A DNA stretch of 64,000 nt from Myxococcota bacterium (GCA_965250285.1 OZ252299.1:800001-864000), one strand, 5' to 3'. Counted from the stretch's first letter, positions 11,329 to 58,426 are shown. Program-made: numbers and translations. Notes: generated from the sequence alone by a model not told the origin.

Positions 11329-11338
11329 GGGACACGTC

Positions 11339-37321: not shown

Positions 37322-38050
37322 CTACAGGAAGGGGACCGCGAGCGAGCGCTCCACGAGGTCGACGCCCGCGGCATCGACCTTCTCGCCCGTGCCGCGCAGC
37401 CCGAAGAGCGTGAGCACGCCGCCGACCGGCCGCACGACGATCGAAGACAACGCCGTGCCGCCGACTCCGAACACGACACTCGGCGTCTTGTACGCGCGCG
37501 TGTGGAACCACTCGTCGCCGACGTAGTCGGTCAACTCGGTCTGCTGGATGCGGTCGAATTCGGTGTCGTAGATCGAGCCGAGCTGCGAGCGAGACGGCTG
37601 CGCGAGCGCGCCGTACCGCAGGAGCTGTCGGCTTGCGACGCCGCGAAAGACGTACCGGGTTGCCGGGTTCGCATCGACCAGCCCCACGACGTCCCCGGCG
37701 ATCGTGCCGACCTTCTGCCCGAGCGTGCCCCCGCCCCGAACGAAGAAGAGGGTGAAGCCGGTCGAGAGCCCCTGAAAGAAGCTGTCGGCGACGGTGATCG
37801 TGCCATCCCGCAGATTCGACCCGATGCGTCTCGGGATGGACTGATCGGCATAGGGCTTCTCGTCGATGTCCCAGCGCAGCGTGCCGGGCTCGCCCTGCGG
37901 CTCGGCCGCGTCGTTCGACTGTGTCACGGCATGCGCAGCTGGAATCGAAAGCGCGGTGGCGGCCCATACGCTCAGGACCAGCGCCAGGCGGCTCAGCGTC
38001 GGCCCACGCTTCGTACGGACGTTCGAGATGTCTCGACTGGCTTGGTGCAT
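37322..38050 (-). CDS. Hypothetical exported protein
   Basis: GGAGA RBS, signal-like LALVLSVWAATALSIPAAHA; divergent from the LysR gene. Confidence 0.55.
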   Translation of the reverse strand: MHQASRDISNVRTKRGPTLSRLALVLSVWAATALSIPAAHAVTQSNDAAEPQGEPGTLRWDIDEKPYADQSIPRRIGSNLRDGTITVADSFFQGLSTGFTLFFVRGGGTLGQKVGTIAGDVVGLVDANPATRYVFRGVASRQLLRYGALAQPSRSQLGSIYDTEFDRIQQTELTDYVGDEWFHTRAYKTPSVVFGVGGTALSSIVVRPVGGVLTLFGLRGTGEKVDAAGVDLVERSLAVPFL

Positions 38051-39383: not shown

Positions 39384-42170
39384 ATGCTGATTCCCCTCGC
39401 CGGCCATCGCGGGTCGTTCGTCGCATCGATCCTTCATCAGTCCAGGCTCATCCGTCTGGTCCCGATCCTGTTGGCGGCGTCCGTACTCTGGGCGGGCACG
39501 GCTCGCTCGCTCGAGGTGGGGCAGATTCTCGTCGCCGACCGCGGCGCGAACGCCGTGATCGAGATCGATCCAGTGACCGGCGATCAGAGTGTGATCGCGA
39601 GTGGGGCGCCCTTCCTGGCCCTCTCGGGTCTCACCTTCGACCGATTCCGTCGCGTCATCTATGTCACCGATCACGGTGGACCGGGGCAGGCGGCCGGGGT
39701 CTACCGCGTGGTGCCGGAGACGGGTGTGGTGACGCCGGTCGCCCTCGGCGGCAACTTCGTCCAGCCCGGATCGTTGGTCGTCGAGTCGACTCAGCAGTCG
39801 CTGATCGTGGCCGAGGGCATCCCGGGGCGGTTGATCCGCGTCAATCTCGTCAGCGGCGATCAGTCGATCGTGGCGTCACCGCCGGCGGCTTCGGGTCTCC
39901 TCTTCGCCGGCAGCTCGAACTACTACGTTTCGAAGACGTCGGGCATCGCCATCGAGCAGATCAACCTGAATGACCCTGCGAGCCCGGTGACCGTCGGCGC
40001 GGGGGGGAGCTTCTCTTCACCGACCGACATCGGTGGTCCCATCGCGGGTCTTCACTACGCCGCCGAGAACTCGGGCGGGTTCCTGATCGAGATCAACCTG
40101 CTCGGCTACAACCCGATGTTCCCCGACGCCAACCAGACGATCGTCGCGGCCAGCAACATCGTGACGCCCTTCGGTGTGATCCGCGAGAACGCCGAAAGCG
40201 TCGTTCTGACCGACCCGGGTGCCGTCGGCGGCGCGGGTGCGGTCATTCGCTACACGCCCGGCACCGGCATCGACGAGATCGTGACGAGCGGCGATCTCCT
40301 CTCGGATCCACGTGGCGTCGATGTGGTGCCTACCCAAACCGGTTGGGTCCTTCGCCCGGATGTCGTGCTCACGAACCCGACGACGGCGACCGTCAGCCGC
40401 TGGAACCAGGACGCCAACGTGCTGGAGACCATCTTCTCGGGCGCGCCTCTGGTGGAGCCCACCGGAGTCGCCGTCGATCCGGTCGACGGGACCATTCTCG
40501 TCGCCGACAGCGACGCGGGACCGGCCGGTTCGGGCGTGATCTTCGAGCTCGATCAGGCGGGGGGGATCTCGACCCTGACGGACGGCGGATTCCTGGTCGA
40601 TCCGGTGGACTTGGAGCTGGAGCCCGACGGCGACGTCGTGATCGCTGATCCCGGCGCTGCAGCGGTTCTCCACGTCGCTCGGGACAGCGGCGTGCAGACG
40701 AGCCTCGGGAGCCTCAACGGGGCTTCGGCCGTGACCGTGCGCATGGACGGCACCATCTACGCGGCCGGCACGTCGCCCATTCAGATCGTGCGATTCCCGG
40801 GCGGGGCAGGGCCGCCCGAAGTGGTGGCGGCCGACGGCAACCTGACCGGGCCGACGGGTCTCGTGCTCGACCCCGAAGGCCTCCTCGTGGTGCTCGACGC
40901 CTCGGGTCTCGTGCGCGTCGATCCCGACGCCTACTCGCCGATCGACGCGCTTGCGAACCAGACACCGATCACCGATGGCGGCGTCCCCACGCAGCCTGCG
41001 GCGATCGACATCGATGTGTCGAGCAACTACATCCTGGCTGATCCAGCTGGCAACGGCGCTTCGGGCGCTCTCGTGGCGGTCTCTCGCAATGGCGGAGGTA
41101 GCCTGCGCGAAGTCGATGGGACACTCGGCAACGTGACGGGGGTCGCCATGATGCGCCTGCTGCCGAGCCCCGACGACATTCTCGTGACACCCCTCAATCT
41201 GCGGCGCGTCGTTCGCGTCGATCCCGACAACGGATCACAGACGGTCGTCAGCAGCGAAGGATTCTTCGATCGCCTGACCGGCATCGCGATCCGCGACGAA
41301 CGAACCGCGTTCGTCACGGATAGCGACGCCGACCAGCTCCTTCTCGTCGACCTCGGCACTGGGCAACAGCGGGTGTTGGGGACGGCGAGCAGCGTCGGGC
41401 TCAACTCGAGCGACAGCCTCCTGCAGGACGTCGAGATCGGCCCCGACGGCACGGCTTGGGTGGTCGACGAACAGGACGGCAATCGCCTCGACCCCGACTT
41501 TCAGGGCCGCCTCTACCGCGTCGATCCCGTGACGCTGGCCTTTAGCCTGGAGATCACCGATCCCCTGCTCGGCGGCGCGCGTGGATTCACGATCGACGAC
41601 GCCGGCGAGCTCTGGATCGCGACGAGCATCTCGGGGATCGGGGTCAACGTCGACAAACTGTTGCGATACGACCCGAGCGGCACGGACGGCGTCGTGCAGG
41701 TGGCCTCGGGGTCTCCGCTGCTCGCGCCGGGCGACGTCTCCTTCATGCCGTCCGGGCCGTTCTCGGGTGCGCTCTTCGTTCCCGATGGAACGAATCTGCA
41801 TCAGGCGAGCCGCGACGACTTCTCGGTCACGGTGATCGATACGGGCGGCTTCATGACCAATCAAACCGATTCGGCCGTGGACAATCAGTTGAACATCATC
41901 ACCGTCGGGCGTGCCTCTCCTCACAACATCGTCCGGCACCGACTCATCGAGCCGCCGCAGGGGGCTGCGGGCACACCCACGAGCGTGGAACAGGATCTGA
42001 TCTCGCGGGGTCTCTTCATCAGCACCATGGCGGGCGTCGACGTCATGCCGGCGCCCGAGCCCGGCTTCGGCTCATCGTGGATGGCCGGGGGTCTGTTGCT
42101 GACGTTGTTGCGCCGCCGGCGAGTTCGGGGCGCGGCATCGGCCGGGGGCAAGCGCAGACTTCGCTTCTGA
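39384..42170 (+). CDS. Large beta-propeller (NHL-like repeat) PEP-CTERM protein
   Basis: Repeated units of the type P.G.A...DG.I.VAD and V.RVDP.TG.Q; signal peptide; C-terminus PAPEPGFGSSWMAGGLLLTLLRRRR. Confidence 0.8.
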   Translation: MLIPLAGHRGSFVASILHQSRLIRLVPILLAASVLWAGTARSLEVGQILVADRGANAVIEIDPVTGDQSVIASGAPFLALSGLTFDRFRRVIYVTDHGGPGQAAGVYRVVPETGVVTPVALGGNFVQPGSLVVESTQQSLIVAEGIPGRLIRVNLVSGDQSIVASPPAASGLLFAGSSNYYVSKTSGIAIEQINLNDPASPVTVGAGGSFSSPTDIGGPIAGLHYAAENSGGFLIEINLLGYNPMFPDANQTIVAASNIVTPFGVIRENAESVVLTDPGAVGGAGAVIRYTPGTGIDEIVTSGDLLSDPRGVDVVPTQTGWVLRPDVVLTNPTTATVSRWNQDANVLETIFSGAPLVEPTGVAVDPVDGTILVADSDAGPAGSGVIFELDQAGGISTLTDGGFLVDPVDLELEPDGDVVIADPGAAAVLHVARDSGVQTSLGSLNGASAVTVRMDGTIYAAGTSPIQIVRFPGGAGPPEVVAADGNLTGPTGLVLDPEGLLVVLDASGLVRVDPDAYSPIDALANQTPITDGGVPTQPAAIDIDVSSNYILADPAGNGASGALVAVSRNGGGSLREVDGTLGNVTGVAMMRLLPSPDDILVTPLNLRRVVRVDPDNGSQTVVSSEGFFDRLTGIAIRDERTAFVTDSDADQLLLVDLGTGQQRVLGTASSVGLNSSDSLLQDVEIGPDGTAWVVDEQDGNRLDPDFQGRLYRVDPVTLAFSLEITDPLLGGARGFTIDDAGELWIATSISGIGVNVDKLLRYDPSGTDGVVQVASGSPLLAPGDVSFMPSGPFSGALFVPDGTNLHQASRDDFSVTVIDTGGFMTNQTDSAVDNQLNIITVGRASPHNIVRHRLIEPPQGAAGTPTSVEQDLISRGLFISTMAGVDVMPAPEPGFGSSWMAGGLLLTLLRRRRVRGAASAGGKRRLRF

Positions 42171-42601
42171 CGCGGAGGTCGAGACCATCGCCGCGCCTCG
42201 ATTTGACTCTCCTTGTCCGGTCCCCGATCCCCGATCGTCGGCCTTCCCGTTCATTTCGTGTCCGATGTCTAGATCGGGCTGGTGCGACGGGCGAAGTCGG
42301 CCGCGAGACTCGCGCGAAGGTCAAGTTCAGCTTGAATCGCAGCGGTTGGCCGATGTCTGTGCCTATGACCCCGTTCGCGTCCGCCCCTCCGATCCGTCGC
42401 CCGTGCGAAGGGGCGAGTGCCGCGGCGCGCTCGTCTCAAGGATTGTCCCCGATGGGCGATCGCATCCGGCTCGTAGGCCGTTGTTGTTGCTTTCGTCCCG
42501 ATCTGTACAGATCGTCTCGCTGTCGACTGGCACACCCGACTCGAGAATCAATCGCCCACCTCTGGGCGTCTTCAGGCGCCGTGGGCGCGCTCGAAGCTGC
42601 G

Positions 42602-42643
42602 AGACGCGATTGCGTTGCATTTTCGCGTCGATCAAGACGCGAT
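42602..42643. promoter_or_regulatory. Candidate operator upstream of the Rhs-like operon
   Basis: Inverted repeat GACGCGA-N13-TCGCGTC (42603-42629) plus a direct repeat of AGACGCGAT (42602, 42635) in a 625-bp intergenic region. Confidence 0.3.
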
Positions 42644-42795
42644 CCACTTTGGAAACCGCATGACTGAACTCCACTTCGCATCTGCCTCGACCCCGATTGG
42701 CTTTGGGACCCTGCCTTTGCTTGCTACATGTCGCTTAGCGGCGCCCACTTTGGGTCGCCCGAGCCCAGTCCTTGCACCGCCAGAGGTCTCCATTC

Positions 42796-45700
42796 ATGAG
42801 TCGTCTGCAGTTTCTCCTAACCGTGGGCCTCGCCCTGCTCTGCGTCGCCGCCTTGGGCAGCGCCGGGAGCACCACGACAGCCACGTGCGATGGCGATACC
42901 TGCAAGGGTAGTCACAGCACCGTTCTTGCCATCGCCCACGACTACAACGACCCCGCGAACACGATTCTGTATCGCGTGACGCTGCCCGAGCAGGTGACCG
43001 GCACCGCCTTTGGTGACGGCACCAACGGCTTCTTCTACCGCACCTCGACCGACGGCGGGAGCACGTACTCGTCGATCGTGCCGTTCAACGGTATCGGCAT
43101 GAATGCCGCCGGTGCGCCCACGCTCAGGCCCTTCTCTTTCATCGTGAAGGCGCCCTCGACGGCTACGGCGCTCACCGTGGAGGCGTGCGTCAGCAACTAC
43201 TTGAGCGATGCGACCGGAGGCGCCGAGTGCAACAAGGTCCTCTGGTCGGACGATTACTCTGCGTTGCCGAGCCCGACGGTCGCCGCTTCGACCCTGCCGT
43301 CTTCGCTGGCGCTCGAATACTTGAGCAACTCGGTGACCGTTCGCAATAACGGTGTGTACGGGGCCCGGGTGCTGTTGAAGCCCAGTGCCACTGCCACGCT
43401 GACCGAGGCGCAGATCGAATGGCTCTACGACCATCTGGTCTTCCTGGACGCGAACAGCAACGTCTATACGAACGACGTCCTGGCCGATTCGACGGCGTCG
43501 CCGAGCTTTGCGGCGTTGAGCGTTGAGGAGGCGGCGCATCCGACGACGTCGGCGGGCACGACCTTCAACACCAAGTATGGGCAGATCGCGCAGCCGGTGA
43601 CTCCAAACGACCCGAGCGTGACGCCGAACCGCTACTTCTGGGTGTACAGCACCAATACGAGCAACGCGGGAAGCGGTCAGAGCGTTCCGATCTCGGTCGG
43701 TTGGTTGTACGACGCTTCAGCCGACTGCCCCGGGGCGCTCTCGGGCGACGACAACAGCAAGAGCTCGACCTGCGGCGTGCCGACGCCGCCGCCCTCCCAG
43801 GCCGCGAGCGATTGCCCGGATCCGGCGGCCGGCGACGGCAGCGGCGCCGCGAACTGCACTGACCCCGGCCAGTCGCAGGCCCAAGCGCCAGCGCCCGCAG
43901 CGACCCAGGCGCCTGCGCCCGCTCAGGCCAAAGCGCCGAGTTCATCGAACACCCCCGTGCCCGCGCCCGCCCTGGGCGCAAGCAATGCGGTTCTGGAGAT
44001 GACCGTGCTCGACGGCACGGGTGCCACGGTGCAGTCGCAGTCGCAGTACGCCGCTGGCACGCGCTACGTGCGGACCGTCAGCCTAGTGCCCACCGACACG
44101 AGCAATCTCTGTACGGCACCGGTGAACCCCCTCGCGGTGAACGATGTCAACGCCGTCAATCTGCCGAACTACGTAATCGACCGGAAGACCGCCTCGAGTC
44201 AGGACCCCTGGACGAAGGTGTTTCCGTCTGCGCTCTACTACTTGGAGCCCACAGGCTTCGGCAACTGCGATGGGGCCGAGGCACCGTTCTGCCAGCTGAC
44301 GAGCAGTTATACCGCCTACGTCCCCGGCTACGTCGATGAGAACGGCCTGGGGGGCAGCCTGAACGGCAATAGTACGAGTTCACCACTGCTGGGTTCGGCA
44401 AACGGCACGTTCAAGGTATTCGACCAGTACACGCTGAACGGTCTGGCCGAGGCCGGCACGAACACCCTCGTCTGGTTCGACAACTGTGGCTATGGCCATC
44501 TGTACGAAGATGAAAGTCTCTCCGGACGGCTGAAGCTGCCGCCGGGGGACAAGATCAGCTCGCTGCCGGTCTTCAACTACACGGTGACCAACAAACTCGA
44601 TGAGCCGATCGTGTTCGCCAAGGAGTGCTGCGCCAGCCTCTACCAGGAGAACGCCAACAACTGCACGCAGGAGCAGAATGGCCAGCTCACCAACTGCGCC
44701 TACGATCCGCCGCAGCAGATTGGCACCAGCGTCGCCGACCCTGAGCTCGCTGGGTCGGGTCTCTATGTGCCCGCGGGCGGCTCGGTCGAGTACAGCACGC
44801 TGTTCAGCGATGAGTTGACGACGGCCTACAGCGCGATCACAGGGCTGCCGCTCTTCGAGCTGCGACTCATGGCCGAGCGTTCGACGGTGCTTCCTGTTGC
44901 GGGTTCGGCGACGCTGTACGAATGCGTAGATCCGGCTCCGGCCGTTGCGCTGACTGGATCGGGCGCCAATTGGAGTCTCGAGATCGGTGCTGGCGGCACA
45001 GGTGCGTTGACCTGCGACGCCAGTGAGAATCCTCAGGGCCTGTGCCCATGGCCGATGTTCTACATCGCGGGCACCGGCGCGCTCGCGGGCTACACCACCT
45101 GTGCTCTCGGCACCCAAACCCGGAGCTCTCTCGTGTTGGATGTCGGGAGCTGGGCCGAAGAGGTCCTTAGCGACAGCCAGCCGGTCTGGGTCATGGCCTG
45201 GGGCGCTGCGGGGAGCGCGGGGACGAAAAAAGGCAGTGAAGACGGAGGCGCAGGTGGCTCTCCCGGGTTCGCCATCACGATGGTTGCGGGGTCGGATCTC
45301 AAGTCGGTTGACGGGCTCTATGCGTATCTCGGTTCCACGGACGGCAACAGCATGATCGGCGGCAGCTCTTCGATCCTCAGCAAGAAGCCGCTGACTGCGA
45401 TGAGTCCCCAGCAACGCGCGACCTCGACGCCCGGGGATGTGGCGTACGTCATCGCCGGCGGCGGCGGGGGCGGCGGTTCCGGAGCGAAAGACTTCGGGTC
45501 GCCGTTCTACGGGGGCGCGGGCGGCCGCGGGGGTGTTGCCTGCGCGAATGCATCGACGATGCCCAGCAGCCACGTGAGCGTGCAGGGCAGTGACGGGGCG
45601 CGTGCATGCCATCCCCCGGGAGACGGGGGGTGCAGCTCCGAATCGAAGTGCAACGGCGGCGATGGGGGCAACAGCAATGGCGCCGGCAATGCGGGCGGCG

Positions 45701-46425
45701 GCAACAGTGGCGGCCCCTCAGGCAGCGCCGGGATCGGTGGCTTCGGCGCGTACAACGGTTGGTTGATCAGCGGCAGTCTGGTTCCAGTCGGGACGCCGAT
45801 GGGCACGGGAGACGGCGGGGCCGAGTACAACTATGGGGGCAGCGGTGCCGGCGGCTACGGCGGCGGGGGCAGCGGTTCTTCGTGTAGCGGCTCAGGGGGT
45901 GCAGGTTCGGGCGGAGGCGGAGGCGGCAGCTTTGCCGCCGCGAACACCGCCCACGATCCCAACTTCCCCTCGACGACAAGCTGTACCGCACCCGCCGACT
46001 ACCACTCGGCCGTGGTGCTCGCCTATGCGGGCGAGGGAATCGCCCTGCCGGGTGCTCTTACGTCCTCGACCGACGAAACACCGACCGCTTGTCTGAGCGC
46101 ACCGAACGACCAGGGGTACGTTCTGAAGAGCGGTTCTGGTTGGTCGCTGTTCTGGCAGAGCGACGCCAATCTCGTCTTGCTCGATGAGAACGGGCTGCCC
46201 AAGTGGAGCACGGGCGCGGGCAAGAGCGGAGACACCCTGTGCTTCCAATCGGACGGCAATCTCGTGATCTACAGCGGCGGCAGCCCAAGGTGGGCCAGCG
46301 GTACGGGCGACGAAGGGCATGGTGGCAATGGCGGCCGGCGTCTCGCATTCAATGGGGCCTGCGAAGTTGCCGTCCTCGATCCGGACAGCAAGGTGCTCTG
46401 GTCGACCCAGACCAGCTGCGACTGA
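42796..46425 (+). CDS. Large secreted protein with Pro/Ala linker, glycine-rich region and C-terminal bulb-type (B) lectin domain
   Basis: Signal peptide MSRLQFLLTVGLALLCVAALGSAG; QAPAPA repeats; AWGAAG..GG.GG..IAGGGGGGG..GGGGGGSF Gly-rich block; WQSDANLVL and FQSDGNLVIY (QxDxNxVxY mannose-binding motif). Confidence 0.8.
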   Translation: MSRLQFLLTVGLALLCVAALGSAGSTTTATCDGDTCKGSHSTVLAIAHDYNDPANTILYRVTLPEQVTGTAFGDGTNGFFYRTSTDGGSTYSSIVPFNGIGMNAAGAPTLRPFSFIVKAPSTATALTVEACVSNYLSDATGGAECNKVLWSDDYSALPSPTVAASTLPSSLALEYLSNSVTVRNNGVYGARVLLKPSATATLTEAQIEWLYDHLVFLDANSNVYTNDVLADSTASPSFAALSVEEAAHPTTSAGTTFNTKYGQIAQPVTPNDPSVTPNRYFWVYSTNTSNAGSGQSVPISVGWLYDASADCPGALSGDDNSKSSTCGVPTPPPSQAASDCPDPAAGDGSGAANCTDPGQSQAQAPAPAATQAPAPAQAKAPSSSNTPVPAPALGASNAVLEMTVLDGTGATVQSQSQYAAGTRYVRTVSLVPTDTSNLCTAPVNPLAVNDVNAVNLPNYVIDRKTASSQDPWTKVFPSALYYLEPTGFGNCDGAEAPFCQLTSSYTAYVPGYVDENGLGGSLNGNSTSSPLLGSANGTFKVFDQYTLNGLAEAGTNTLVWFDNCGYGHLYEDESLSGRLKLPPGDKISSLPVFNYTVTNKLDEPIVFAKECCASLYQENANNCTQEQNGQLTNCAYDPPQQIGTSVADPELAGSGLYVPAGGSVEYSTLFSDELTTAYSAITGLPLFELRLMAERSTVLPVAGSATLYECVDPAPAVALTGSGANWSLEIGAGGTGALTCDASENPQGLCPWPMFYIAGTGALAGYTTCALGTQTRSSLVLDVGSWAEEVLSDSQPVWVMAWGAAGSAGTKKGSEDGGAGGSPGFAITMVAGSDLKSVDGLYAYLGSTDGNSMIGGSSSILSKKPLTAMSPQQRATSTPGDVAYVIAGGGGGGGSGAKDFGSPFYGGAGGRGGVACANASTMPSSHVSVQGSDGARACHPPGDGGCSSESKCNGGDGGNSNGAGNAGGGNSGGPSGSAGIGGFGAYNGWLISGSLVPVGTPMGTGDGGAEYNYGGSGAGGYGGGGSGSSCSGSGGAGSGGGGGGSFAAANTAHDPNFPSTTSCTAPADYHSAVVLAYAGEGIALPGALTSSTDETPTACLSAPNDQGYVLKSGSGWSLFWQSDANLVLLDENGLPKWSTGAGKSGDTLCFQSDGNLVIYSGGSPRWASGTGDEGHGGNGGRRLAFNGACEVAVLDPDSKVLWSTQTSCD

Positions 46426-46445
46426 GCCGAACGAGGAGAGTCGCG

Positions 46446-48245
46446 ATGCAGCGTGGATTTCGACTTCGCGGGTCGGGCATGGCGCTGGCACTCTGGGGTT
46501 TGTGCTGCGTGGTCACTCCCGCCTGGTCCGGTACGACGACGACGGAGTACACGTACAACGGCGACGGTGCGTTGACGTCGATGACGGTGACGCAAGAGGG
46601 CGGAACGCCCGAGACGACGTACCTCACGTGGGACAACTTCACGCCGGACGCGAGCAATCCCTCGACCGGAACGCTCAAACAAGGCAATGGCCGACTGGTC
46701 GGGATGGGCCCACAGCCGGGGGCCGCGTCGACGTTCGAGTTCGACGTGCGCGATCGTCTGACGTCGCAGGGCGCTGGTGCGACGGCACAGAGCTACGGCT
46801 ACCACGCGAACAGTCTGCTCGCGACGTCCGAGCTGGGCGATCAATCGCGGACGTTCTACCAGGGCAGCGGCCAGCATCCGGTGATGCTCAATGTGGTCGA
46901 AAGCGGCGACGGCGAAACGCGTCGCTCCGCGCGGCTTGGGGCAGGGCGCTACCTGTCAGATGGCACCGAGCAGGTGCTGATCGATCCTCGCAAGGACACC
47001 GAAGGGGTGTACTCGCCGGCCGACGGGACGCTGTCGAGTCGCACCTACGATCCGTTCGGCGCCCAGGCCGAAGAGACGCCGGCGACGGAATACGACCTTG
47101 CGGACAACCCGTTCCAGTACGCGGGGGAGTACCGCGATCCGGTATGGGGCGGCGTCTACCTGCGAGCCCGCTGGTACGACCCGAACCTGGCGCAGTTCAT
47201 CTCTAGAGATCCGATGCCGCACCTGAACCCGTACGCGTACGGGGGTGGCAACCCGGTGATGCGCGTCGATCCGGGGGGCATGAGCTTCATCCATGACCTC
47301 GCGAAGGCCGACGAGTGGATGAACCAAGGCGTGGGGGGCCACTTCGCGCGAATCTTTCTCTCGCCGGCCATGGCGATCCTGGCCATTGGCGCCGATCCCG
47401 GCGGTTTCTGGCAACAGATCAAACACAACAAGGCCGGGATCGACATCTTTCTCGGTGCCGCCGTGGTCGTCGAAGCCGCATCGATTGGACTCGAAGGCTT
47501 TGGGTTGTCGGAGACCGTGCGCACGCTCGGTCCCAGGACGCGCTTCGGCACGCGGCTTCTCATCGACAATGGGTTGAACGTGGGTCAGAGCGTCGCGGTC
47601 GGCTACGACCGTGGTCACGGCCAATTCGACTGGTCGGCGTTCGTGAACGCCAATGAGATGTCGGGCGGTTGGGAAGCCTTGAGCAGGGGTGTCTTCGGCA
47701 TGGGCTACCACCCGTACGCGATGAAGGGGGAGGACGTGGCCCAGATGCTCAAGGGTATGCGGGGCGGGATGTTCGGCGAAACGACCGACGACTCCGTCTT
47801 GATCTTCCGCACTCGTGAGCCGTACGCGCCCTGGAAGCTCAAAGGGACGAGTCCGCTAGCCGAGGCACTTGAGCTCGGCAACTACCATGAGAGAATCGTT
47901 GCGATCGCGAGCGACTTCTCCGAGCACAATGAGCTCGATACGTATCCGATGGACGACGGGACGATCCTGGCCGAGAAGAACGTCATGCACAAGGACGGAT
48001 GGCCGGACGACTATCTGCAGCGGAGGAGCAGGATGCGATACCAGTACGTCGGCAAGATGTCGAGGCAGGATTTTCTCGCGAGCGGGTTCACCGATCTGAA
48101 CCCGCGCGAGCTCTTGCTCGGCGGTGGAGGGATCGACGTCAACAACAACAATCTTCCGGTGCAGGATTCGTGGCGGTACAACCGTCTTCGGAACAACTGC
48201 CACAACCATGCACAGGCCGTACTCAAGCTGTTGAACGTCGAATGA
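46446..48245 (+). CDS. Secreted short Rhs-core protein 1 with a ~321-aa C-terminal cargo
   Basis: GAGGAG RBS; signal peptide ending PAWS; YDPFG, FQYAGEYRD, YLRARWYDP..QFISRDP, NPYAYGGGNPVMRVDPGG core; C-terminal YH...NNCH. Confidence 0.88.
   Translation: MQRGFRLRGSGMALALWGLCCVVTPAWSGTTTTEYTYNGDGALTSMTVTQEGGTPETTYLTWDNFTPDASNPSTGTLKQGNGRLVGMGPQPGAASTFEFDVRDRLTSQGAGATAQSYGYHANSLLATSELGDQSRTFYQGSGQHPVMLNVVESGDGETRRSARLGAGRYLSDGTEQVLIDPRKDTEGVYSPADGTLSSRTYDPFGAQAEETPATEYDLADNPFQYAGEYRDPVWGGVYLRARWYDPNLAQFISRDPMPHLNPYAYGGGNPVMRVDPGGMSFIHDLAKADEWMNQGVGGHFARIFLSPAMAILAIGADPGGFWQQIKHNKAGIDIFLGAAVVVEAASIGLEGFGLSETVRTLGPRTRFGTRLLIDNGLNVGQSVAVGYDRGHGQFDWSAFVNANEMSGGWEALSRGVFGMGYHPYAMKGEDVAQMLKGMRGGMFGETTDDSVLIFRTREPYAPWKLKGTSPLAEALELGNYHERIVAIASDFSEHNELDTYPMDDGTILAEKNVMHKDGWPDDYLQRRSRMRYQYVGKMSRQDFLASGFTDLNPRELLLGGGGIDVNNNNLPVQDSWRYNRLRNNCHNHAQAVLKLLNVE
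46516..47283 (+). repeat. 768-bp near-identical direct repeat, copy 1
   Basis: Matches 48303-49070 (offset 1787). Differences seen at 46694, 47012, 47129 and 47264, all synonymous. Confidence 0.95.
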
Positions 48246-50053
48246 ACTTTCGATCGCACGCCCGATTGTTGTTGGCACTGCTCGCAACCGCAGCCATGGC
48301 CCCTCCCGCCTGGTCCGGTACGACGACGACGGAGTACACGTACAACGGCGACGGTGCGTTGACGTCGATGACGGTGACGCAAGAGGGCGGAACGCCCGAG
48401 ACGACGTACCTCACGTGGGACAACTTCACGCCGGACGCGAGCAATCCCTCGACCGGAACGCTCAAACAAGGCAATGGCCGGCTGGTCGGGATGGGCCCAC
48501 AGCCGGGGGCCGCGTCGACGTTCGAGTTCGACGTGCGCGATCGTCTGACGTCGCAGGGCGCTGGTGCGACGGCACAGAGCTACGGCTACCACGCGAACAG
48601 TCTGCTCGCGACGTCCGAGCTGGGCGATCAATCGCGGACGTTCTACCAGGGCAGCGGCCAGCATCCGGTGATGCTCAATGTGGTCGAAAGCGGCGACGGC
48701 GAAACGCGTCGCTCCGCGCGGCTTGGGGCAGGGCGCTACCTGTCAGATGGCACCGAGCAGGTGCTGATCGATCCTCGCAAGGACACCGAAGGGGTGTATT
48801 CGCCGGCCGACGGGACGCTGTCGAGTCGCACCTACGATCCGTTCGGCGCCCAGGCCGAAGAGACGCCGGCGACGGAATACGACCTTGCGGACAACCCGTT
48901 CCAGTACGCGGGGGAATACCGCGATCCGGTATGGGGCGGCGTCTACCTGCGAGCCCGCTGGTACGACCCGAACCTGGCGCAGTTCATCTCTAGAGATCCG
49001 ATGCCGCACCTGAACCCGTACGCGTACGGGGGTGGCAACCCGGTGATGCGTGTCGATCCGGGGGGCATGAACTTCATCCACAGCCTCTACAATGATCTCG
49101 ACAAGGGGGTGCAGGGGCATCTGGATCGGCTGTTCCTCGCTCCCTTGATGGGTCCCCTGGCGATCGCGGCCAATCCAGAGGGCTTCTGGAATCAGGTCAA
49201 GCACGACAAGGGCGGGTTCGACGTATTCCTCGCGGCAGGCGTCGCTGTCGAGATCGCATCGGTGGGGGCCGAAGGCTTCGGCCTGTCTGCCACGTGGCGC
49301 AACCTGGGGGTGGGGACCCGCTTCGGTGCGCGCGTCGGGATCGACAGCGGGCTGGCCATTGGTCAGGCGGTCGCCGCGGGGGCCGAGCGGGGCAAGGGGC
49401 ACTTCGACTGGACCAGCTTCGGGAGTACGTTGGAACTGTCGGCCGGCATGCTGGGGCTGAGTCACGGGGTTCTCGGCGTCGGCTACCACCCGTTCGCGTT
49501 GACGGGCGATGATGTCGTCGCGCGCGTCGAGGAAATGACCGACAGCAGCAAGATGCTCGTCTTTCGCGAGCGCACCCAGGGCTACGCGCCCTGGCGCGGC
49601 ATCAACACCAGTCCGCTGGCCGAGTGGATGAACCTCGGGAACTACCATGAGCGCCTGATCGCGGTCAGCAGCGAAGAGTTTCGCTCCAACGAGATCGTGA
49701 CCGATCAGGGGAGCACGGGTTCGAGTGGCACCGGCACCGGCTCGAGCCGCGGCGACGCGCTGGGCGGCATCAAGCGGCGCTACGTCGACTACGCGACCGG
49801 CGACGGCGCGAGCGACCTGGATACGATCCAAGAGGCCTTTGCCGGACGTCGGGGGCGATACCAGTTCGTGGGTGAGATCGACCGAAGCCAACTCAACAGG
49901 TTCGCGTCGAACCCGATGAGCTACCCGAACGAGGCGTTGCTCGACATACCAGAAGCACGCGAACTCAACCCCCGCGCGGCCCAGTACAGCATGCTGAGGA
50001 ACAACTGCCATCACCATGCCGCGGCCGTGCTTCGATTGCTGAGTCTTCAGTAG
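48242..50053 (+). CDS. Secreted short Rhs-core protein 2 with a ~328-aa C-terminal cargo
   Basis: ATGA overlap with the previous gene; signal peptide MNFRSHARLLLALLATAAMAPPAWS; same core through DPGG; C-terminal YH...NNCH. Confidence 0.88.
   Translation: MNFRSHARLLLALLATAAMAPPAWSGTTTTEYTYNGDGALTSMTVTQEGGTPETTYLTWDNFTPDASNPSTGTLKQGNGRLVGMGPQPGAASTFEFDVRDRLTSQGAGATAQSYGYHANSLLATSELGDQSRTFYQGSGQHPVMLNVVESGDGETRRSARLGAGRYLSDGTEQVLIDPRKDTEGVYSPADGTLSSRTYDPFGAQAEETPATEYDLADNPFQYAGEYRDPVWGGVYLRARWYDPNLAQFISRDPMPHLNPYAYGGGNPVMRVDPGGMNFIHSLYNDLDKGVQGHLDRLFLAPLMGPLAIAANPEGFWNQVKHDKGGFDVFLAAGVAVEIASVGAEGFGLSATWRNLGVGTRFGARVGIDSGLAIGQAVAAGAERGKGHFDWTSFGSTLELSAGMLGLSHGVLGVGYHPFALTGDDVVARVEEMTDSSKMLVFRERTQGYAPWRGINTSPLAEWMNLGNYHERLIAVSSEEFRSNEIVTDQGSTGSSGTGTGSSRGDALGGIKRRYVDYATGDGASDLDTIQEAFAGRRGRYQFVGEIDRSQLNRFASNPMSYPNEALLDIPEARELNPRAAQYSMLRNNCHHHAAAVLRLLSLQ
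48303..49070 (+). repeat. 768-bp near-identical direct repeat, copy 2
   Basis: Matches 46516-47283. Confidence 0.95.
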
Positions 50054-50217
50054 GCGATGAGCGCCTCATGCGAGTCCACCCTGCGCTGCGCGCCGGGCCA
50101 GACACTCATCGGAAGAATGACGGCGGTCGAGCTGTACTCCTGCGCGATACCCCGGTCCGCGCATATGCGACCAGACCAAGAGTCACGATCAGATAGAGAA
50201 CAAGTCGAGGAAGCCGA

Positions 50218-53200
50218 ATGAGCAAGTCGCCCCCCCGTACGAACCTCGAGTCTCCGAGTGGATCCGTCGGCGCGTTGGCGCCTTCGATGGGACGAAGGCT
50301 CATGTGTCGGGCCAAGCCGGGCAGACTGGTGGCGACAGCGCTCATCCTCTTCGGATTGGCGGTCGACTCGACGGCCGCACGCGATCACGAAAGCAGACGG
50401 GCTGCGTCGGCCAAATCCTCGCCCGGCAGTGCAACGGAAGCCAAGGGTGGCGCCGCGACCGCCGGCTCGGGGGCGGGCTCATCTTCCGGCTCGAACGCCA
50501 GCAATTTCGGCGGCGGCGCACAGGTCTCGGTCAACCCGCGCACGGGTGCGCTGTCGATCTCGTCGACCCTGTTCCGACTTCCGGGCATCGTTTCGGGGAT
50601 GGACGCGACACTGGCGCTCACGTATCGCAGTGACGACGCACAGAACGATGTCGAGCAGCAGACCAGCTACTTCAGTCTGCCCTACGGCTGGTCTCTGGGG
50701 CTCTCCTACATCTACAACGATGGCCAGAACCTCGAGCTCAGCGTCGATGGCCAGCAAAGCTACGTGATCGATTCGAGCTGGCAGACGAACTTCTTGCCCA
50801 CCGGTTCGACCGAGCCCGTCGCGACGTATACCGGGCTGAAGCAGTACAACCGCACCGATGCCAATTTTCTCACCTTGGCTGATTCGGATCAGGTCAAGAT
50901 CAATGGCGCCACGGCGGTGTACGTTTTCGACACCATAGACGGCAAGCGTCAGTACTTCAGCTCGGGCGGTTTGTTGCTGCGCAAAGAAGATCGGTTCGGC
51001 AACAGCATCGACTATCTCTACAGCAACATGAATGGCTCGCCGACGGACGATGGCCTGACTCTGACGGGCATCACCGACACCTGGGGCAACGAGACCACCA
51101 TCGGCGCTTGCAGCGGCCAGGGGTGCTTTGCCGGGCAGGTCGACGTCGTCTTGCCCGATGGGCGCAAGGTGGGCTGGATCCCCGGTGGCGAAAACCAGAT
51201 TACCTACCTGATCGATACGCAGGGCAAGATCACCCATATCGGCTGGACCGAGAGCACCTGCGCGCAGGGCGGGTACCTCGCCACCAGCATGACCAGCCCC
51301 ACCGGCGGTATGTCCAGCATCGAGTGGTCTTGCCTCGACGTCTGCACCGAGCCCGCTTCGGGCGCTTCGTGCGCGCAAGACGGCAACACCACGACATGGC
51401 CTGTCGTCAGCACCCTGTACCAGTGCCCGAATAACGCGAGCGGCACGGCCTGTCCGGATGGTTCGGCGCAGAAGGACTACGAGACCACGAGCTACGCGTA
51501 CAAGACGAGCGAAAGCGTCAACAACTACACGGGTTTTCCGCTCTATTCGCCGTATGCCCCGGCTGATCCGAATGCAGATGCGCTCATGGCCTCGAACAAC
51601 ACGGGCTTCGTGTACAGCACGATCGTCAGCACGCTGAGTTCGGGCGGAGCCGTCTACAACCAGGAGCAAACCGACTACAACTTCGTCCACGTGAAGCGAG
51701 AGCGCACGATCAGCGTTCGTGCACAGCAATCAGACGGAAGCATGGGGCTCAGCACTTCGAAGGTGGTGAGCTACTGCTATCCGCTGCTGCCCTCGGGCGT
51801 CGCCGATAGCGGCTGCCCAATGACCAGCCCTGAAATCAGCTACCAGCTCTTGCCGGCCAACTACCAGTCGCCGATCGCGATGGGAAGCTGTCAGTACAAC
51901 GTCGGCCCGAAAGCGGATCCGAGTTCTGGGCGACATTCATTGATCACGATGTCGTACGACGGGTTTGGCCACACGCTGAACAAGCGCACGTATCACAGCA
52001 CGGCCAGCAGCGGCGTCGGCAGCTGCGGCAGCCGAACGGCGAATCTCAGCACCAGCGGGATGAACCTGGTCAACGACCAGTACATGGCCTACGACGTCCC
52101 GACGTCGCTGAACGGCGACAAGTATCTCGATCTCGGCCCCGGGAGTGGGACCTACGGCTTGCCGACAGGTCAGCAGTCGTTCATCTACCTGGATCCCGAC
52201 GAGAGCCCGGAGGGCGTCCATGGTGCACTCGCCGACACCGAGGGGCCGACCATGGTGAAACTCCTGTGCAATGCGCTCACCGAGAATAAGGGCGCAGAGA
52301 CCGTCGGGACGAACATCAAGACAAGCACGGTCGGGTTGATGGATACGTCCACCACGGTTCCCACGCCCGGGATCATCTCGGCGTGCTCGGATTCGACGCC
52401 GTGGGTAGCGTCGGTGGCGCCGCCCAAGACCTCGACCCTGAGCTACGACAGCAACGGCCGGAGCCTGGGGAGCACGAGCGGCTGGGCCGCTGGCTATACC
52501 GCTCCGGACGGAGTGAGCGCGACGAAACAGGCGACCAGCTACACCCTGACCCAGGTGGCCGCCGGCGAGGAAAGCTGCGGTGGTACGGACAAGAACGTTC
52601 TCGAGATCACCGCAACGGCGTTCGTCGACCCCTCGAGCACGAACGCGAAGGCAAGCGGCAACGTGGCGCAGACCCATCGCATCTGCACGTTGAACGGTTT
52701 TCATCTCTCGTCGACCCAGCCCTATGATCCGAGCGACGGGGAAAGTGCCGCCACCAGCTACTTCACCCACTTTGCCGACGGACTCGTCGAGAGCACGACC
52801 CACCCCAACGGCACCAGTGTCACGGCGGACTACTACTACGCCTGTCCGACGGCGCAGGATGGCCGATCGCAGACGTGCCCGAATACCTCGACGGCCAAGA
52901 GCGACTGTCCGTACGATCCGACTGATCAGCGCAACTGTGTCGTGCATACGCTGAACGCCGGTGATGACAACACAAGCTACGTGGACGGCGTGGTCTCTGT
53001 CGCGGTCAAGGATGGCCTCGGCCGCGTCGTCGCGAGCCTCGACAACACCGGCGCGGCCGGCAGCGGTGCCGGTTTCACCGAAACCCAGACGCGAAAGACG
53101 TCGCTCTACGACAGCCTCGGCCTGTCGACGTCGCATAGCAGCCAGGTCGGTGTGGAGGATCCGCTCGTCTACACCACCACCGTCGAAGAGTACGGACCGA

Positions 53201-54873
53201 AGCTGCGCCCGAGTCGGGTGTGTGGGCCGCGCGGAGACGCCCACGAGTTCGTCCATGACGACGTTCAGCAGCAGACCAAGACCATCATCAACGGCGCCGA
53301 CAAAGAGTCGTTCACGCTCAATGACAGCCGCAAGCTGACACTCTTGGTCAGTTGCGAGTTGACCGAGGACACCACGGCAGCGGGCAGCGGGAGCTGTCCG
53401 ACGGTGGCAGCCAGCACCGATAGCCCCACCTGCAGCGGCGATGGCTACTACAGCTACACGCTGCACGACGGCAGCGGGGTGCCGCACTCGGTCATGGCGA
53501 GCGCCGGCGATCAGAGCGACGAGCTGGCGTCGATCCAATCGGTTCGAGGTCAGAGCACGATCACCGACGGCAGCGCGACCGTTTCGGCGTTCTCGGCCGA
53601 CTTGCTGCAGTACGGCTACAACTTCACGAGCACTTCGAACCAGACCGGCGAAGCCGTGACCGCCGAGTCGAGCTGGCAACGCAACCTGATTGGAGACAAG
53701 CGCAAGCAGCAGCTGTCGGTCACCGCGGGCTCGGGCACGACCGACGTCGTCTCGGATCTGTTCGAGTACAACGCGTTGGCGGATCCATCGAGTGAACTGA
53801 ACCGCATGAGTACGAATGACGTCACCCTGCAGAAGTCATTCGCCCATACACCAGCGGGTCAACTTCAGACCTACACGAGCTACGCCGGCGTGACTTTCTA
53901 TAACTACTACGACGACATGGAGCGGTTGGTCCGTCACTGTTACCCAGGTGACGAGAGCGGGTCCCAGGGCGAGAACTACACCCGCGACCCGATCACTGGA
54001 AAGGTCTTGAAGCTCGCTCGATTCACGAATCCGGACGACTGCAGCGCAGACACCAGCAAGGACACCGAGGGCGTCTACGAGAGTTACGCGTACAACCGCT
54101 TCGGCGCGATGGAGAGCATGACCTACTCCGATGGAGCCAAGCTCGAGTGGGCTTTCGACCAGTACCAGCGGCCCGTCTGTTTTGCCGACGCGATGGCAAC
54201 GAACGCAGGCCAGGGATGCCCGGCTTCGCCCATCACGACGAGCTTCAGTCCGGCGGCGAGCACGATGCTGATCTACCACCAGTACTACGACGATTCGGAG
54301 CCCTACCGGCGGGGCAAGTTAAAGCGCAGCTGTCGAGGGGTTCCGGATGGCAGCGGCAACTACGTCACGAAGTGTCTGGAGTACGACTACTACACGCCCG
54401 CGAGCACCGGTGGTATGTGCAAGGGGGGCGATGTGGCCACCGACGGTACCTGCACGAATGGCGCCGCGAGCGTGACCGGTGCGTTCGCGGGCATGACTCT
54501 CACCGAGTCGTACTACACCGGAGGAGCGTCGGACGACGGCGGCGTTCTCGTCTACACCACGACCCACACCTACGACGCCCATCGGCGCCCGGCAGCGGTC
54601 GTGACGAAGGGCGCAGATGCGAAGATCATCCTGGCGACGACATACGCTTACGACCAGTACGACAACCTGACGCGTGAAACCCACTTGTCGCAGGTCGATA
54701 CGAGCGCCGCCAGCAACTACCAGGAGACGTATGGCTACGACGGCCTCTTGCGTGTCATCTCGGCGCAGCGTGACGATCTGAGCGGCAATTTGATCCGCTC
54801 GCTGACGTACGAGTACGACGCCGCGTCGAATTTGACCAAGAAGGTCGAGACGACGCCGGATGAGGCCAGATAG
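50218..54873 (+). CDS. Large secreted YD/Rhs-repeat shell protein lacking an Rhs core
   Basis: GAGGA RBS; hydrophobic signal LVATALILFGLAVDSTAA; Rhs/TcB-like N-terminal motif VNPRTG.LS...L.LTY...YGWSLGLSYI; many YD repeats (EDRFGNSIDY, YDGFGH, YDSNGR, YDDMERL, YDQYDNL, YDGLLR, YDAASNL); no DPxG core. Confidence 0.8.
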   Translation: MSKSPPRTNLESPSGSVGALAPSMGRRLMCRAKPGRLVATALILFGLAVDSTAARDHESRRAASAKSSPGSATEAKGGAATAGSGAGSSSGSNASNFGGGAQVSVNPRTGALSISSTLFRLPGIVSGMDATLALTYRSDDAQNDVEQQTSYFSLPYGWSLGLSYIYNDGQNLELSVDGQQSYVIDSSWQTNFLPTGSTEPVATYTGLKQYNRTDANFLTLADSDQVKINGATAVYVFDTIDGKRQYFSSGGLLLRKEDRFGNSIDYLYSNMNGSPTDDGLTLTGITDTWGNETTIGACSGQGCFAGQVDVVLPDGRKVGWIPGGENQITYLIDTQGKITHIGWTESTCAQGGYLATSMTSPTGGMSSIEWSCLDVCTEPASGASCAQDGNTTTWPVVSTLYQCPNNASGTACPDGSAQKDYETTSYAYKTSESVNNYTGFPLYSPYAPADPNADALMASNNTGFVYSTIVSTLSSGGAVYNQEQTDYNFVHVKRERTISVRAQQSDGSMGLSTSKVVSYCYPLLPSGVADSGCPMTSPEISYQLLPANYQSPIAMGSCQYNVGPKADPSSGRHSLITMSYDGFGHTLNKRTYHSTASSGVGSCGSRTANLSTSGMNLVNDQYMAYDVPTSLNGDKYLDLGPGSGTYGLPTGQQSFIYLDPDESPEGVHGALADTEGPTMVKLLCNALTENKGAETVGTNIKTSTVGLMDTSTTVPTPGIISACSDSTPWVASVAPPKTSTLSYDSNGRSLGSTSGWAAGYTAPDGVSATKQATSYTLTQVAAGEESCGGTDKNVLEITATAFVDPSSTNAKASGNVAQTHRICTLNGFHLSSTQPYDPSDGESAATSYFTHFADGLVESTTHPNGTSVTADYYYACPTAQDGRSQTCPNTSTAKSDCPYDPTDQRNCVVHTLNAGDDNTSYVDGVVSVAVKDGLGRVVASLDNTGAAGSGAGFTETQTRKTSLYDSLGLSTSHSSQVGVEDPLVYTTTVEEYGPKLRPSRVCGPRGDAHEFVHDDVQQQTKTIINGADKESFTLNDSRKLTLLVSCELTEDTTAAGSGSCPTVAASTDSPTCSGDGYYSYTLHDGSGVPHSVMASAGDQSDELASIQSVRGQSTITDGSATVSAFSADLLQYGYNFTSTSNQTGEAVTAESSWQRNLIGDKRKQQLSVTAGSGTTDVVSDLFEYNALADPSSELNRMSTNDVTLQKSFAHTPAGQLQTYTSYAGVTFYNYYDDMERLVRHCYPGDESGSQGENYTRDPITGKVLKLARFTNPDDCSADTSKDTEGVYESYAYNRFGAMESMTYSDGAKLEWAFDQYQRPVCFADAMATNAGQGCPASPITTSFSPAASTMLIYHQYYDDSEPYRRGKLKRSCRGVPDGSGNYVTKCLEYDYYTPASTGGMCKGGDVATDGTCTNGAASVTGAFAGMTLTESYYTGGASDDGGVLVYTTTHTYDAHRRPAAVVTKGADAKIILATTYAYDQYDNLTRETHLSQVDTSAASNYQETYGYDGLLRVISAQRDDLSGNLIRSLTYEYDAASNLTKKVETTPDEAR

Positions 54874-55219
54874 TCTCATGCGAGGCCGAGCGAGGTAGGT
54901 CAGGTCCACTCGAGTGTTCGCCGGCAGTGCGGGCACGGGGCAGGATGCGCGAGGAGTGAGGCTGGCGATTCGCGCGGGTCGCTTTCGGCAGATCGGGAAC
55001 TGCGGCAGTTGAACCCTGACCGCGCCGTGGGCCCGTCCGAGCTTGCGGCAGAAAGCACATTATCGTTCTCTGCCTCGCCGAACGGTTGATCCTCGCGAGT
55101 GAGACAATCAAGAGAAGAAACACGAAGCATGGGCAAGGGAACTTTTCGTTTACCTGCCAACATGCGATCGCGTATGCTCGGATGGCGTGGGAGTTCGGAC
55201 ACACGTCTGGAGCGAGCGA

Positions 55220-55957
55220 ATGTCGTTTCTTCGTCTTGCCGTGGGTTGCCTCCTCATCGGCGCTGCGCCCGCTGCCACCGCCGCGCCCTTCCAGAACCTC
55301 GACTTCGAGCAGGCCGACCCCGAGCGCTATCTCGCCGAGGGGTACGCCGCCGATGCGTTGCTGCCCGGATGGACGGTGGGCGGGGTATCCAATGAAACAG
55401 ACTTGTACGACGTCGGTGCGCCGCTTGGGCCGAGCTACGACGTGAGCTGCCTGGGGTCGCGCTGCGTCTCCGTCCACGATGGGGAGGGCCCCTACGGATC
55501 GTACCTGCCGATCGCAGGCGATTTCTCTCTGTTGATCCAGGGCGGTACGTTCTTGAGCGGCCGCATCTGGGTGGAGCAGATCGGGGAGATCCCCGCTGAC
55601 GCCCGCGCGATTGAATTCCTCGCCGTCGAGTCCCGGTACAACGGTGACCTGATCGACTTGAGGATCACGGTCGACGGCCAGGACCTGCCGGTCTACTGGG
55701 GCGAGGGTGTCGAGGAAAGCGGGTTGAGGTCCAGCGGCTTGCCGTTCTCGAGGCAGATCGTGCCTCTGTGGGCCGACATCGCCGCCTTTGCCGGGCAGGA
55801 GGTCGCGCTGCAGATCGGTGTGGAGGCGCGTCCGTTCGCCGAGACCGACGTGCTCATCGATGAGGTGCGGTTCACGCTGGTGCCCGAGCCCGGCACGGGC
55901 CTCCTGGTCGGGGCGGGCGCCTGGGTGCTGGGGGCGGGGCGTCGGAGGCGGGCATGA
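55220..55957 (+). CDS. PEP-CTERM surface protein
   Basis: Signal peptide then FQNLDFE..LPGW; C-terminus LVPEPGTGLLVGAGAWVLGAGRRRRA. Confidence 0.8.
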   Translation: MSFLRLAVGCLLIGAAPAATAAPFQNLDFEQADPERYLAEGYAADALLPGWTVGGVSNETDLYDVGAPLGPSYDVSCLGSRCVSVHDGEGPYGSYLPIAGDFSLLIQGGTFLSGRIWVEQIGEIPADARAIEFLAVESRYNGDLIDLRITVDGQDLPVYWGEGVEESGLRSSGLPFSRQIVPLWADIAAFAGQEVALQIGVEARPFAETDVLIDEVRFTLVPEPGTGLLVGAGAWVLGAGRRRRA

Positions 55958-56028
55958 CGACGGTTCGGGCGGTGCGGGCCGAGGACGCGCATGACGTCGG
56001 CGGATCGGTCGTCTGATACTCTGACAGC

Positions 56029-58413: not shown

Positions 58414-58426
58414 CAGGAAGACGTCG

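Follow-up and report, generated by a model that had tools for sequence, protein, structure and literature searches.

The closest described counterparts of the system considered here are the TcB-TcC capsules of the Tc/ABC toxins (Yersinia entomophaga YenB with YenC1, YenC2 and YenC3; Photorhabdus TcdB2-TccC3). Common to both are a shell made from two genes, several cargo subunits per shell and an autoprotease core with one Arg and two Asp residues (Arg/Asp/Asp). One shell served by alternative cargo subunits is already known from YenB and its three C proteins (PMC11067744). The present system is encoded by four genes of a Myxococcota bacterium (GCA_965250285.1 OZ252299.1:800001-864000; the window is this whole stretch of 64,000 nt, and positions are counted within it). 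The genes, at window 42796-54873, specify a partner protein (L), two plugs (P1 and P2) and a shell (S). On balance they probably represent a three-gene, two-piece exported Rhs/YD capsule that delivers a His/Cys enzyme to a foreign membrane.

Unlike in the Tc toxins, each part bears a signal-like segment, the shell is Cys-rich and in most cases anchored, there is one cargo family, SpvB and TcdB_mid domains are not detected, and TcA was not found. (Operationally, PF03538 and PF18276 have no match in the window's genome, a single contig that is 95% complete, though the control genomes gave none either, and no neighbouring gene is conserved.) The plugs are also shorter: TcC proteins have a conserved N-terminal domain of >400 residues and total lengths of 851-1050 residues (PMC7861908), the domain being ~680 residues according to PMC11067744, versus ~600-residue plugs with a domain of median length 250 residues here. 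The PAAR/VgrG link of Rhs proteins associated with type VI secretion (the T6SS) is not seen either: VgrG and TssC were not found in the window's genome, in searches whose controls were positive in E. coli. The first-pass annotation had noted no TcA, VgrG, PAAR or Hcp gene in the window; a layout without T6SS is supported, and for TcA the searches and their controls are equally blank.

Rhs proteins that carry a Sec signal on a single chain are known as well. TLP, myxobacterial Rhs4/5 and WapA share with the present system Sec-type signals, surface display and a YD shell with a bipartite Asp motif (PMC13018210). They are single chains with polymorphic C-termini and, for TLP, immunity genes, whereas here shell and core lie on separate genes, anchoring is C-terminal, a dedicated partner is present and no immunity gene was found. 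Mosquito SGS1, the plug's best PDB sequence match (E 5e-6), resembles the system in that membrane-entering helices are predicted after the core and carbohydrate-binding modules accompany the shell (PMC9935623). In contrast, it is eukaryotic, a single 3364-residue chain without a classical signal peptide, and carries its lectin modules as insertions in the shell, not on a partner. The core with Arg and two Asp (DPxG) that is typical of Rhs/YD-repeat proteins is present, as is the YD-repeat sheet upstream of it, on a separate gene; the adjacent immunity gene and varied toxins of Rhs polymorphic toxin systems were not found. The system functions like a TcB/TcC cocoon, yet departs from Tc toxins in plug length and TcB domains and from T6SS-linked Rhs proteins in lacking VgrG and TssC.

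This architecture had not been recognised as a described one in the first pass. A split Rhs shell and core with separate signals and an L-type partner was not found in the literature searched, which lies largely outside subscription journals (supplementary tables of PMC3482391 and PMC7861908 might list some). A shell shared by alternative cargos and Sec-signal Rhs proteins are each prior knowledge; what is new, and apparently undescribed, is the combination of split, separate signals and partner.

A core-less shell and the plugs predicted to complete it

The reading of a split Rhs, with a single shell that lacks the core and is closed by plugs containing core and cargo, every part bearing an export signal and the layout being conserved, is supported by a complex model, by superposition on solved shells, by co-occurrence and by natural fusions. 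The four co-oriented, signal-bearing genes of the first-pass annotation are intact open reading frames (ORFs) on the + strand, each specifying one N-terminal hydrophobic segment (signals were called on hydropathy and the look of the cleavage site). The P2 start overlaps the P1 stop through ATGA, and alternative ATGs for S lie at 50287 and 50302. GC content at third codon positions is 0.81-0.83 in all four, the same as in flanking genes.

Whole-chain searches with S give no Rhs/YD match in Pfam or NCBIfam and no PDB match. Scanned in parts, S matches RHS_repeat at its C-end (E 2e-6, over cut-off) and DUF6531 at its N-end (E 0.032, under cut-off), and the Rhs core model (TIGR03696) is not matched. 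NHL or FN domains have no Pfam match on S; SpvB and TcdB_toxin_midN/midC have none on S, whole or in two parts, nor in the precomputed Pfam lists of 36 homologues. In 30 shell homologues scanned, YD_repeat_2x is found in 21 and the Rhs core only in the one fused homologue. A 1551-residue YD-repeat protein without a core, as first annotated, is therefore what S is. The Rhs-like half of the "Rhs/TcB-like" N-terminus then proposed is retained at sub-threshold level and the TcB-like half is not, and the chain, which had been taken to stop at NLTKK, continues for 9 residues (..VETTPDEAR).

After their signals, P1 and P2 begin TTTTEYTYNGDGAL and match TIGR03696 at E 1e-18 (67 bits vs a cut-off of 32.5), in agreement with the earlier view that the upstream pair contains the complete core and cargo. 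They are the same from the signal through DPGG (core 100%); the helices that follow are 56% identical and the enzyme domain 34%. The search for plug homologues, which used the whole plug as query and so favours like cargo, returned 103 P2 homologues, mostly of ~600 residues. An alignment of 94 (A2) remains when the self-duplicate and eight short or partial sequences are excluded. Residues R239, D252, D272 and G275 are invariant in all 94; the N-terminal domain is 243-277 residues long and the cargo has a median of 319.

The P2 structure model (pLDDT, a per-residue confidence, 79) superposes through residues 26-262 only on the last ~250 residues of solved shells, namely RhsP, RhsA, TLP, teneurin and YenC2. 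The figures are Z 15.8 for RhsP 900-1120 (root-mean-square deviation (rmsd) 2.8, 192 residues aligned) and Z 13.3 both for YenC2 401-684 and for TLP 1896-2139; comparison of the plug with a viral fold library was uninformative. Since the plug matches only these last ~250 shell residues, the split lies ~400 residues after the TcB/TcC split.

An interface between shell and plug, which the first-pass annotation had called for, was sought by complex modelling of shell 880-1551 with P2 26-300, and found. The score is 0.89 (runs 0.88-0.90) vs 0.00 for the best of three controls, with at least 83% contact agreement between runs and partner pLDDT of at least 85. The strongest contacts join the last strand of the shell (L1539-E1544) to the first strand of the plug (T28-Y32), which continues the shell sheet, and the interface extends back to shell residue 1164. 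A heterodimeric two-gene shell of the Tc kind is thus predicted. The model indicates fit, rather than binding in a cell, and makes a shell-plug complex highly probable. The two plugs had also been proposed to be interchangeable: the model was run for P2 only, and P1 is identical to it over the modelled YD/core domain.

Natural fusions and soundness of the locus

Natural fusions agree with the shell-plug model. In L020 and L036 shell and plug form one chain with a ~110-residue linker, no anchor and no second signal; P0012 and P0014 (72% identical) are shell::plug fusions that retain the transmembrane (TM) anchor of the shell and the signal-like segment of the plug, and L014 and P0168 are shell::L fusions built in the same way. 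P0012 and P0014 may be read as polyproteins that would be cut into the same two parts, which offers a possible route of co-export. In a quick unrooted tree of 35 shells, from which four truncated proteins (P0015, P0021, L014, L017) and also L036 were excluded, the three plug-fused rows need at least 2 changes. As a separate observation, P0012, P0014, P0168 and L014:2013-10829 are in-frame fusions in which a C-terminal TM anchor is followed by a signal-like segment or a lipobox.

The single-chain forms L020 and L036 could also be cited for a single rhs gene that has decayed or been mis-assembled, its orphan core/toxin cassettes acting only by recombination, as could the near-identical 774-nt block in the plug genes, which is what recombining cassettes would leave. 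Misassembly of one full-length rhs gene, which the first-pass annotation had raised against itself, was checked on three read runs, all of one study, that may include the source sample. Single contigs of run X1 span 42000-46545, 47234-48332 and 49021-56000 with zero differing letters, so bridging the L-P1 and P1-P2 junctions and P2 through the S stop, and the shared plug block stands at ~2x read depth (88-96 vs 44-50). Moreover, plugs retain signal-like starts of their own (80 of 84 scored; 10 more were unmatched by the start motif and unscored), shells end in anchors, and the split point is the same family-wide while plugs lie upstream, downstream or on both sides of the shell. A decayed or mis-assembled gene is largely refuted and very improbable.

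Table 1. Features of the split Rhs locus in the window
Feature	Coordinates	Strand	Description
Partner gene L	42796..46425	+	1209 aa; SPI-like signal, conserved beta-rich core, Gly-rich domain, C-terminal B-lectin
L core	42883..45129	+	residues 30-778; family-specific multi-beta-sandwich region, many conserved Cys
L sub-domain	44533..45000	+	residues ~580-735; aegerolysin/actinoporin-like beta-sandwich, borderline
L Gly-rich domain	45133..46050	+	27% Gly over residues 780-1080; one or more copies across the family
B-type (monocot mannose-binding-like) lectin domain	46051..46422	+	two QxDxNxV motifs; optional in the family
Plug 1 (P1)	46446..48245	+	599 aa; signal, last YD strands and Rhs core (residues 29-278, ends DPGG), cargo with H481 and C585
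Plug-gene shared block, copy 1	46510..47283	+	774 nt; second copy 48297-49070, 6 differences between copies
Plug 2 (P2)	48242..50053	+	603 aa; signal, YD and core (residues 26-275; R239, D252, D272), cargo with H469 and C589
P2 helical, partly hydrophobic segment	49067..49501	+	residues 276-420, after the predicted autocleavage site; 56% identical to P1
P2 permuted papain-like domain (His before Cys)	49538..50050	+	residues 433-603; TseH 6v98 fold match; 34% identical to P1
Shell S	50218..54873	+	1551 aa; core-less; signal, DUF6531-like start, YD strands, 31 conserved Cys; no C-terminal anchor in the window's clade

Distribution and gene order

In 301 genomes sampled at class level around a Candidatus Binatia metagenome-assembled genome, plug, L core and shell are found together in 8, the same ones for all three, and the other 293 carry none. 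The order is L-P-P-S here and L-S-P-P-P-P, P-S-L-L, P-P-P-S-L, P-S-P-L, S-P-P-L-P, S-L-L-P, P-S-L-P or P-S-P with an inverted L at other loci, each shell having 1-4 plugs. The conserved three-component layout that had been proposed is thereby upheld across shuffled gene orders, and the three genes very probably act as one unit. (The 24 plug, 12 shell and 15 L matches in the 8 genomes include fragments, and the candidates scored per genome were limited to 2 for the shell and 4 for L, so that the counts give no clean ratio.) Among 60 relatives of the window's genome no member of the plug family was found, which marks the system as patchy and accessory. A phylum-wide search of 401 genomes under a stricter filter, and so a floor, found no full-length shell besides that of the window's genome.

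Anchors of the shell family

A search that took lengths of 853-2715 residues yielded 36 shell homologues, 34 of 1048-1620 residues and 2 fused ones of 2119-2158. A signal-like N-terminus is present in 32 of 34 scored shells vs 11 of 108 internal controls. At the C-terminus, 18 of the 36 have a Pro/Thr linker followed by a GC motif, a TM helix and a basic tail, a pattern that S does not have; another 6 carry a CxGDCNG tail, 4 others are bare and 2 fused, the tail is cut in 2, and 4 are unmatched by the end motif. The CxGDCNG tail, which we take to be dockerin- or EF-hand-like, stands in place of a TM anchor in P0018, P0019, P0022-P0025, L015, L037 and L038. CTERM-like tags reportedly route proteins to the surface through type II secretion. 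One homologue, L016:1708-5093, is a metagenome contig with the shell gene in two reading frames (a frameshift or an assembly error).

S groups with the four bare homologues in a single branch (support 100 in the tree of 35 shells), and the L proteins nearest the window's L likewise lack the lipobox that is found in 21 of 34 L proteins. The window's lineage accordingly looks like a released version of the system, although, as one lineage, it supplies no independent support.

Anchors on most shells and L proteins would also suit a non-toxic surface organelle: an adhesin or enzyme complex, held at the cell by its anchor, in which L would be the adhesin and which would remodel lipids of the cell itself or a nutrient surface. 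YD proteins do have non-toxin uses, in teneurins and in Bdellovibrio Bd0109, a signal-bearing RHS protein with a pilus-regulating role (PMC3818213), and one conserved cargo type with Ser variants and no immunity gene found would fit such a use. The invariance of the autoprotease residues argues against it, as do the multiplication of plugs whose enzyme domains diverge fastest (see the P1/P2 identities above) and the absence of the system from the close relatives searched. An organelle of this kind seems quite unlikely, and a weapon likely.

The partner protein

A search with L returned 27 homologues. The constant part of the family is a ~640-residue beta core and Gly-rich repeats. A profile of the core finds only 62 clusters in 1.84 billion representatives. 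Its model is almost wholly beta (pLDDT 83; pTM, the predicted template-modelling score, 0.85), and a whole-fold match was not found, Foldseek returning generic beta-sandwich chains at TM-scores <0.2. Within the core, residues ~580-735, which have no Pfam match, show the beta-sandwich topology of aegerolysins and actinoporins: Z 8.3 for Cry34Ab1 (rmsd 3.4, 100 residues aligned), 8.1 for OlyA, 7.4 for RahU and 6.6-6.8 for actinoporins. Unlike those proteins, this sub-domain is embedded in the 640-residue core, and the likeness is borderline. The structure comparison tested only these residues well, and the remainder of the core is not thereby shown to be new.

The whole chain of L has no informative match in Pfam, NCBIfam or PDB except at the lectin, and the protein Atlas returned no result. 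The Gly-rich domain has no informative Pfam or PDB match; a possible likeness to the glycine-rich region of ALK/LTK found no support in the PDB sequence search. The lectin matches monocot agglutinin at E 2e-15, with putidacin and pyocin L also among the matches. L had been proposed as the glycan-binding or delivery component on the strength of this domain. The B-lectin is real; it does not define the family, B_lectin being present in 8 of 25 L homologues and malectin in 5 of 25. A core that stays the same while the sugar-binding ends vary would be in keeping with a role of L in aiming.

Cargo and immunity

The Arg/Asp/Asp core protease is described for TLP and SGS1 (PMC13018210; PMC9935623); modelled on TLP, the P2 core would cut after M276. 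The best non-Rhs fold match of the P2 cargo is TseH (6v98; Z 7.2, rmsd 4.5, 125 of 183 residues aligned). With the permuted NlpC/P60 enzymes (TseH and Tox-Act1; relatives LRAT, YiiX and PPPDE) the cargo has in common a His that precedes the Cys and an NC motif near the C-terminus. LRAT, RTE1 and PPPDE appear among its Pfam matches below threshold (weak PPPDE in 4 of 61 plugs, RTE1 in 3 of 61). Those NlpC/P60 effectors are delivered by T6SS, and Tox-Act1 has an immunity protein, whereas here the domain follows a helical segment in an Rhs plug and has no match at a family cut-off. The cargo His is present in 88 of 94 plugs, the Cys in 81 and both in 80; hypervariable, unrelated C-terminal toxins such as those of Rhs polymorphic systems are not seen, in that these 80 keep the His and Cys of one domain family. 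At the C589 column, 8 of 94 plugs have Ser and 6 plugs lack both His and Cys; these are possibly inactive or re-purposed cargos.

Permuted NlpC/P60 enzymes are mainly lipid-directed, and TseH had phospholipase activity in one of two assays (PMC12994826). Because of that leaning towards lipids, a phospholipase or acyl-hydrolase is the first guess for the cargo's activity. The second guess is an isopeptidase of the PPPDE type.

An immunity gene was not found: the gaps between a plug and the next gene are mostly 20-350 nt and are occupied by the N-terminus of the next gene, an unlinked gene being conceivable. The widest gap after a plug is in L015, where ~700 nt precede the conserved start of the shell and contain short unconvincing frames only. 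No conserved flank ORF was found among 611 flank frames of 17 loci, in which only two pairs of loci share a gene.

These results bear directly on whether the same capsule might be an antibacterial or kin-discrimination weapon, the capsule shielding the producer, so that an immunity gene would be superfluous, and the plugs forming a panel against bacterial membranes or walls. The nearest cargo fold is that of an antibacterial T6SS effector, TseH; myxobacteria use one-chain Rhs proteins with signals for kin killing (PMC10433427); B-lectins occur in bacteriocins, such as putidacin and pyocin L, both among the matches; and the distribution is patchy (0 of 60 relatives). Antibacterial Rhs, TLP and Tox-Act1 systems have immunity genes, however (PMC13018210; PMC12994826), and none was found here; a single cargo family, moreover, gives little kin specificity. 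An antibacterial role is accordingly judged unlikely. The lack of an immunity gene instead suggests that the target differs from the producer, a microbial eukaryote being the likeliest candidate, and a eukaryotic target is a tentative proposal with somewhat less than an even chance of being right.

Proposed mode of action

For a capsule delivering its enzyme to a foreign membrane, the following course of events can be envisaged. Shell, plugs and L, each with its N-terminal signal-like segment, would be exported separately, probably by Sec, and the 31 conserved Cys of the shell are as expected for periplasmic folding. Shell and plug are predicted to assemble outside the cytoplasm, the first plug strand extending the shell beta-sheet and the ~250-residue domain capping the spiral; any plug of the operon would fit. 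The core autoprotease, if the invariant Arg/Asp/Asp is a guide, would cut just after DPxG-x and free the ~320-residue cargo. The complex may reach the surface by the type II secretion system of the genome (in which GspD is over cut-off); it would be tethered in most relatives through the CTERM-like shell tail and the lipoprotein L, and released in the anchor-less clade of the window. The last steps are the weakest. L might use its beta core and variable sugar-binding domains to bind the surface of the target, and the cargo helices might enter the target membrane, where the permuted papain-like domain could attack an acyl bond, most likely in a membrane lipid.

Several observations weigh against this reading. 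The 8 genomes in which the three genes co-occur are kin, and one of them (G427) was the centre of the search. The mark for the complex score is met by 116 of 157 solved pairs and 2 of 215 mismatched pairs, a calibration that is only rough here because the halves of a split gene may pass through likeness to solved Rhs/Tc shells and because alignments made for the present analysis were used. The model covers shell 880-1551 only, and a closed cocoon around a 320-residue cargo lies beyond the modelled part. For the cargo, Z 7.2 to TseH is middling and within the range of common arrangements, all Pfam matches are under cut-off, His or Cys is missing in 14 of 94 plugs (including the Ser variants), and one conserved cargo type is unusual for a competition toxin. 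MYXO-CTERM (TIGR03901) is found in 7 of 30 shells scanned, once over cut-off. For residues ~580-735 of L an unrelated Vps13 domain heads the list (Z 8.5), with which the aegerolysin-like match is tied. Expression and toxicity lie beyond the present evidence from sequence and models.

Neighbouring genes and other Rhs genes

The window's genome holds three other core-bearing Rhs genes. One, G000:C1 592714-596490, is a one-chain Rhs of ~1250 residues whose post-core C-terminus consists of a hydrophobic segment, a CTERM-like TM helix and a basic tail, so that its cargo end looks anchored. One-chain Rhs frames of 2414 and 2141 residues lie at G000:C1 781366-788610 and 1404321-1410746; the N-terminus of the former is possibly SpvB-like.

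PEP-CTERM-like tails flank the operon, on an NHL/ScyE beta-propeller, a small PEP-CTERM protein and a TSP3-repeat and FGE-sulfatase-like protein (39384-42170, 55187-55957 and 60128-63985). Window 56029-60124 (+) encodes a TPR/CHAT-domain protein and then a ShlB/FhaC (POTRA) transporter, with no obvious passenger gene adjoining in the window. As a candidate exporter this ShlB/FhaC gene, which lies 3.5 kb downstream, was set aside: none of the window's flank genes was met again at 16 other loci (4-kb flanks, by which ShlB is partly covered). Elsewhere in the window, 10006-12115 is of lower GC content (0.57-0.62) and encodes an acetyl-CoA hydrolase/transferase and an enoyl-CoA hydratase; 35016-36398 (+) is a Cys-rich lipoprotein-like ORF with EB and Dickkopf-like matches; and ORFs of 903 and 242 residues at 155-2866 (-) and 37322-38050 (-) have no Pfam match.

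Implications

How Rhs cocoons without T6SS or TcA reach and enter their targets is an open question. In the present family, three genes form a minimal and self-contained set and specify shell, cargo and a candidate aiming subunit as individual proteins, so that loading, closing, cutting and release become separable. It indicates a second position at which a YD shell can be divided, with closure apparently following export, and brings in a partner core without a whole-fold match. Shell and L evade standard annotation, having no informative whole-chain Pfam match, which would explain how the system has gone unnoticed in uncultured bacteria. In the fullest version of the proposal, an Rhs capsule tethered to the surface and open to reloading would be put together in the periplasm from a shell and a cartridge exported separately. 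L, as a multi-beta-sandwich lipoprotein with an aegerolysin-like module for membrane binding, would be its dedicated aiming and entry subunit in place of TcA or T6SS, and the whole, directed against microbial eukaryotes, would constitute a new class of delivery machine. Taken as a whole this is rather unlikely; if true, it would mean that a split cocoon has arisen independently of TcB/TcC.

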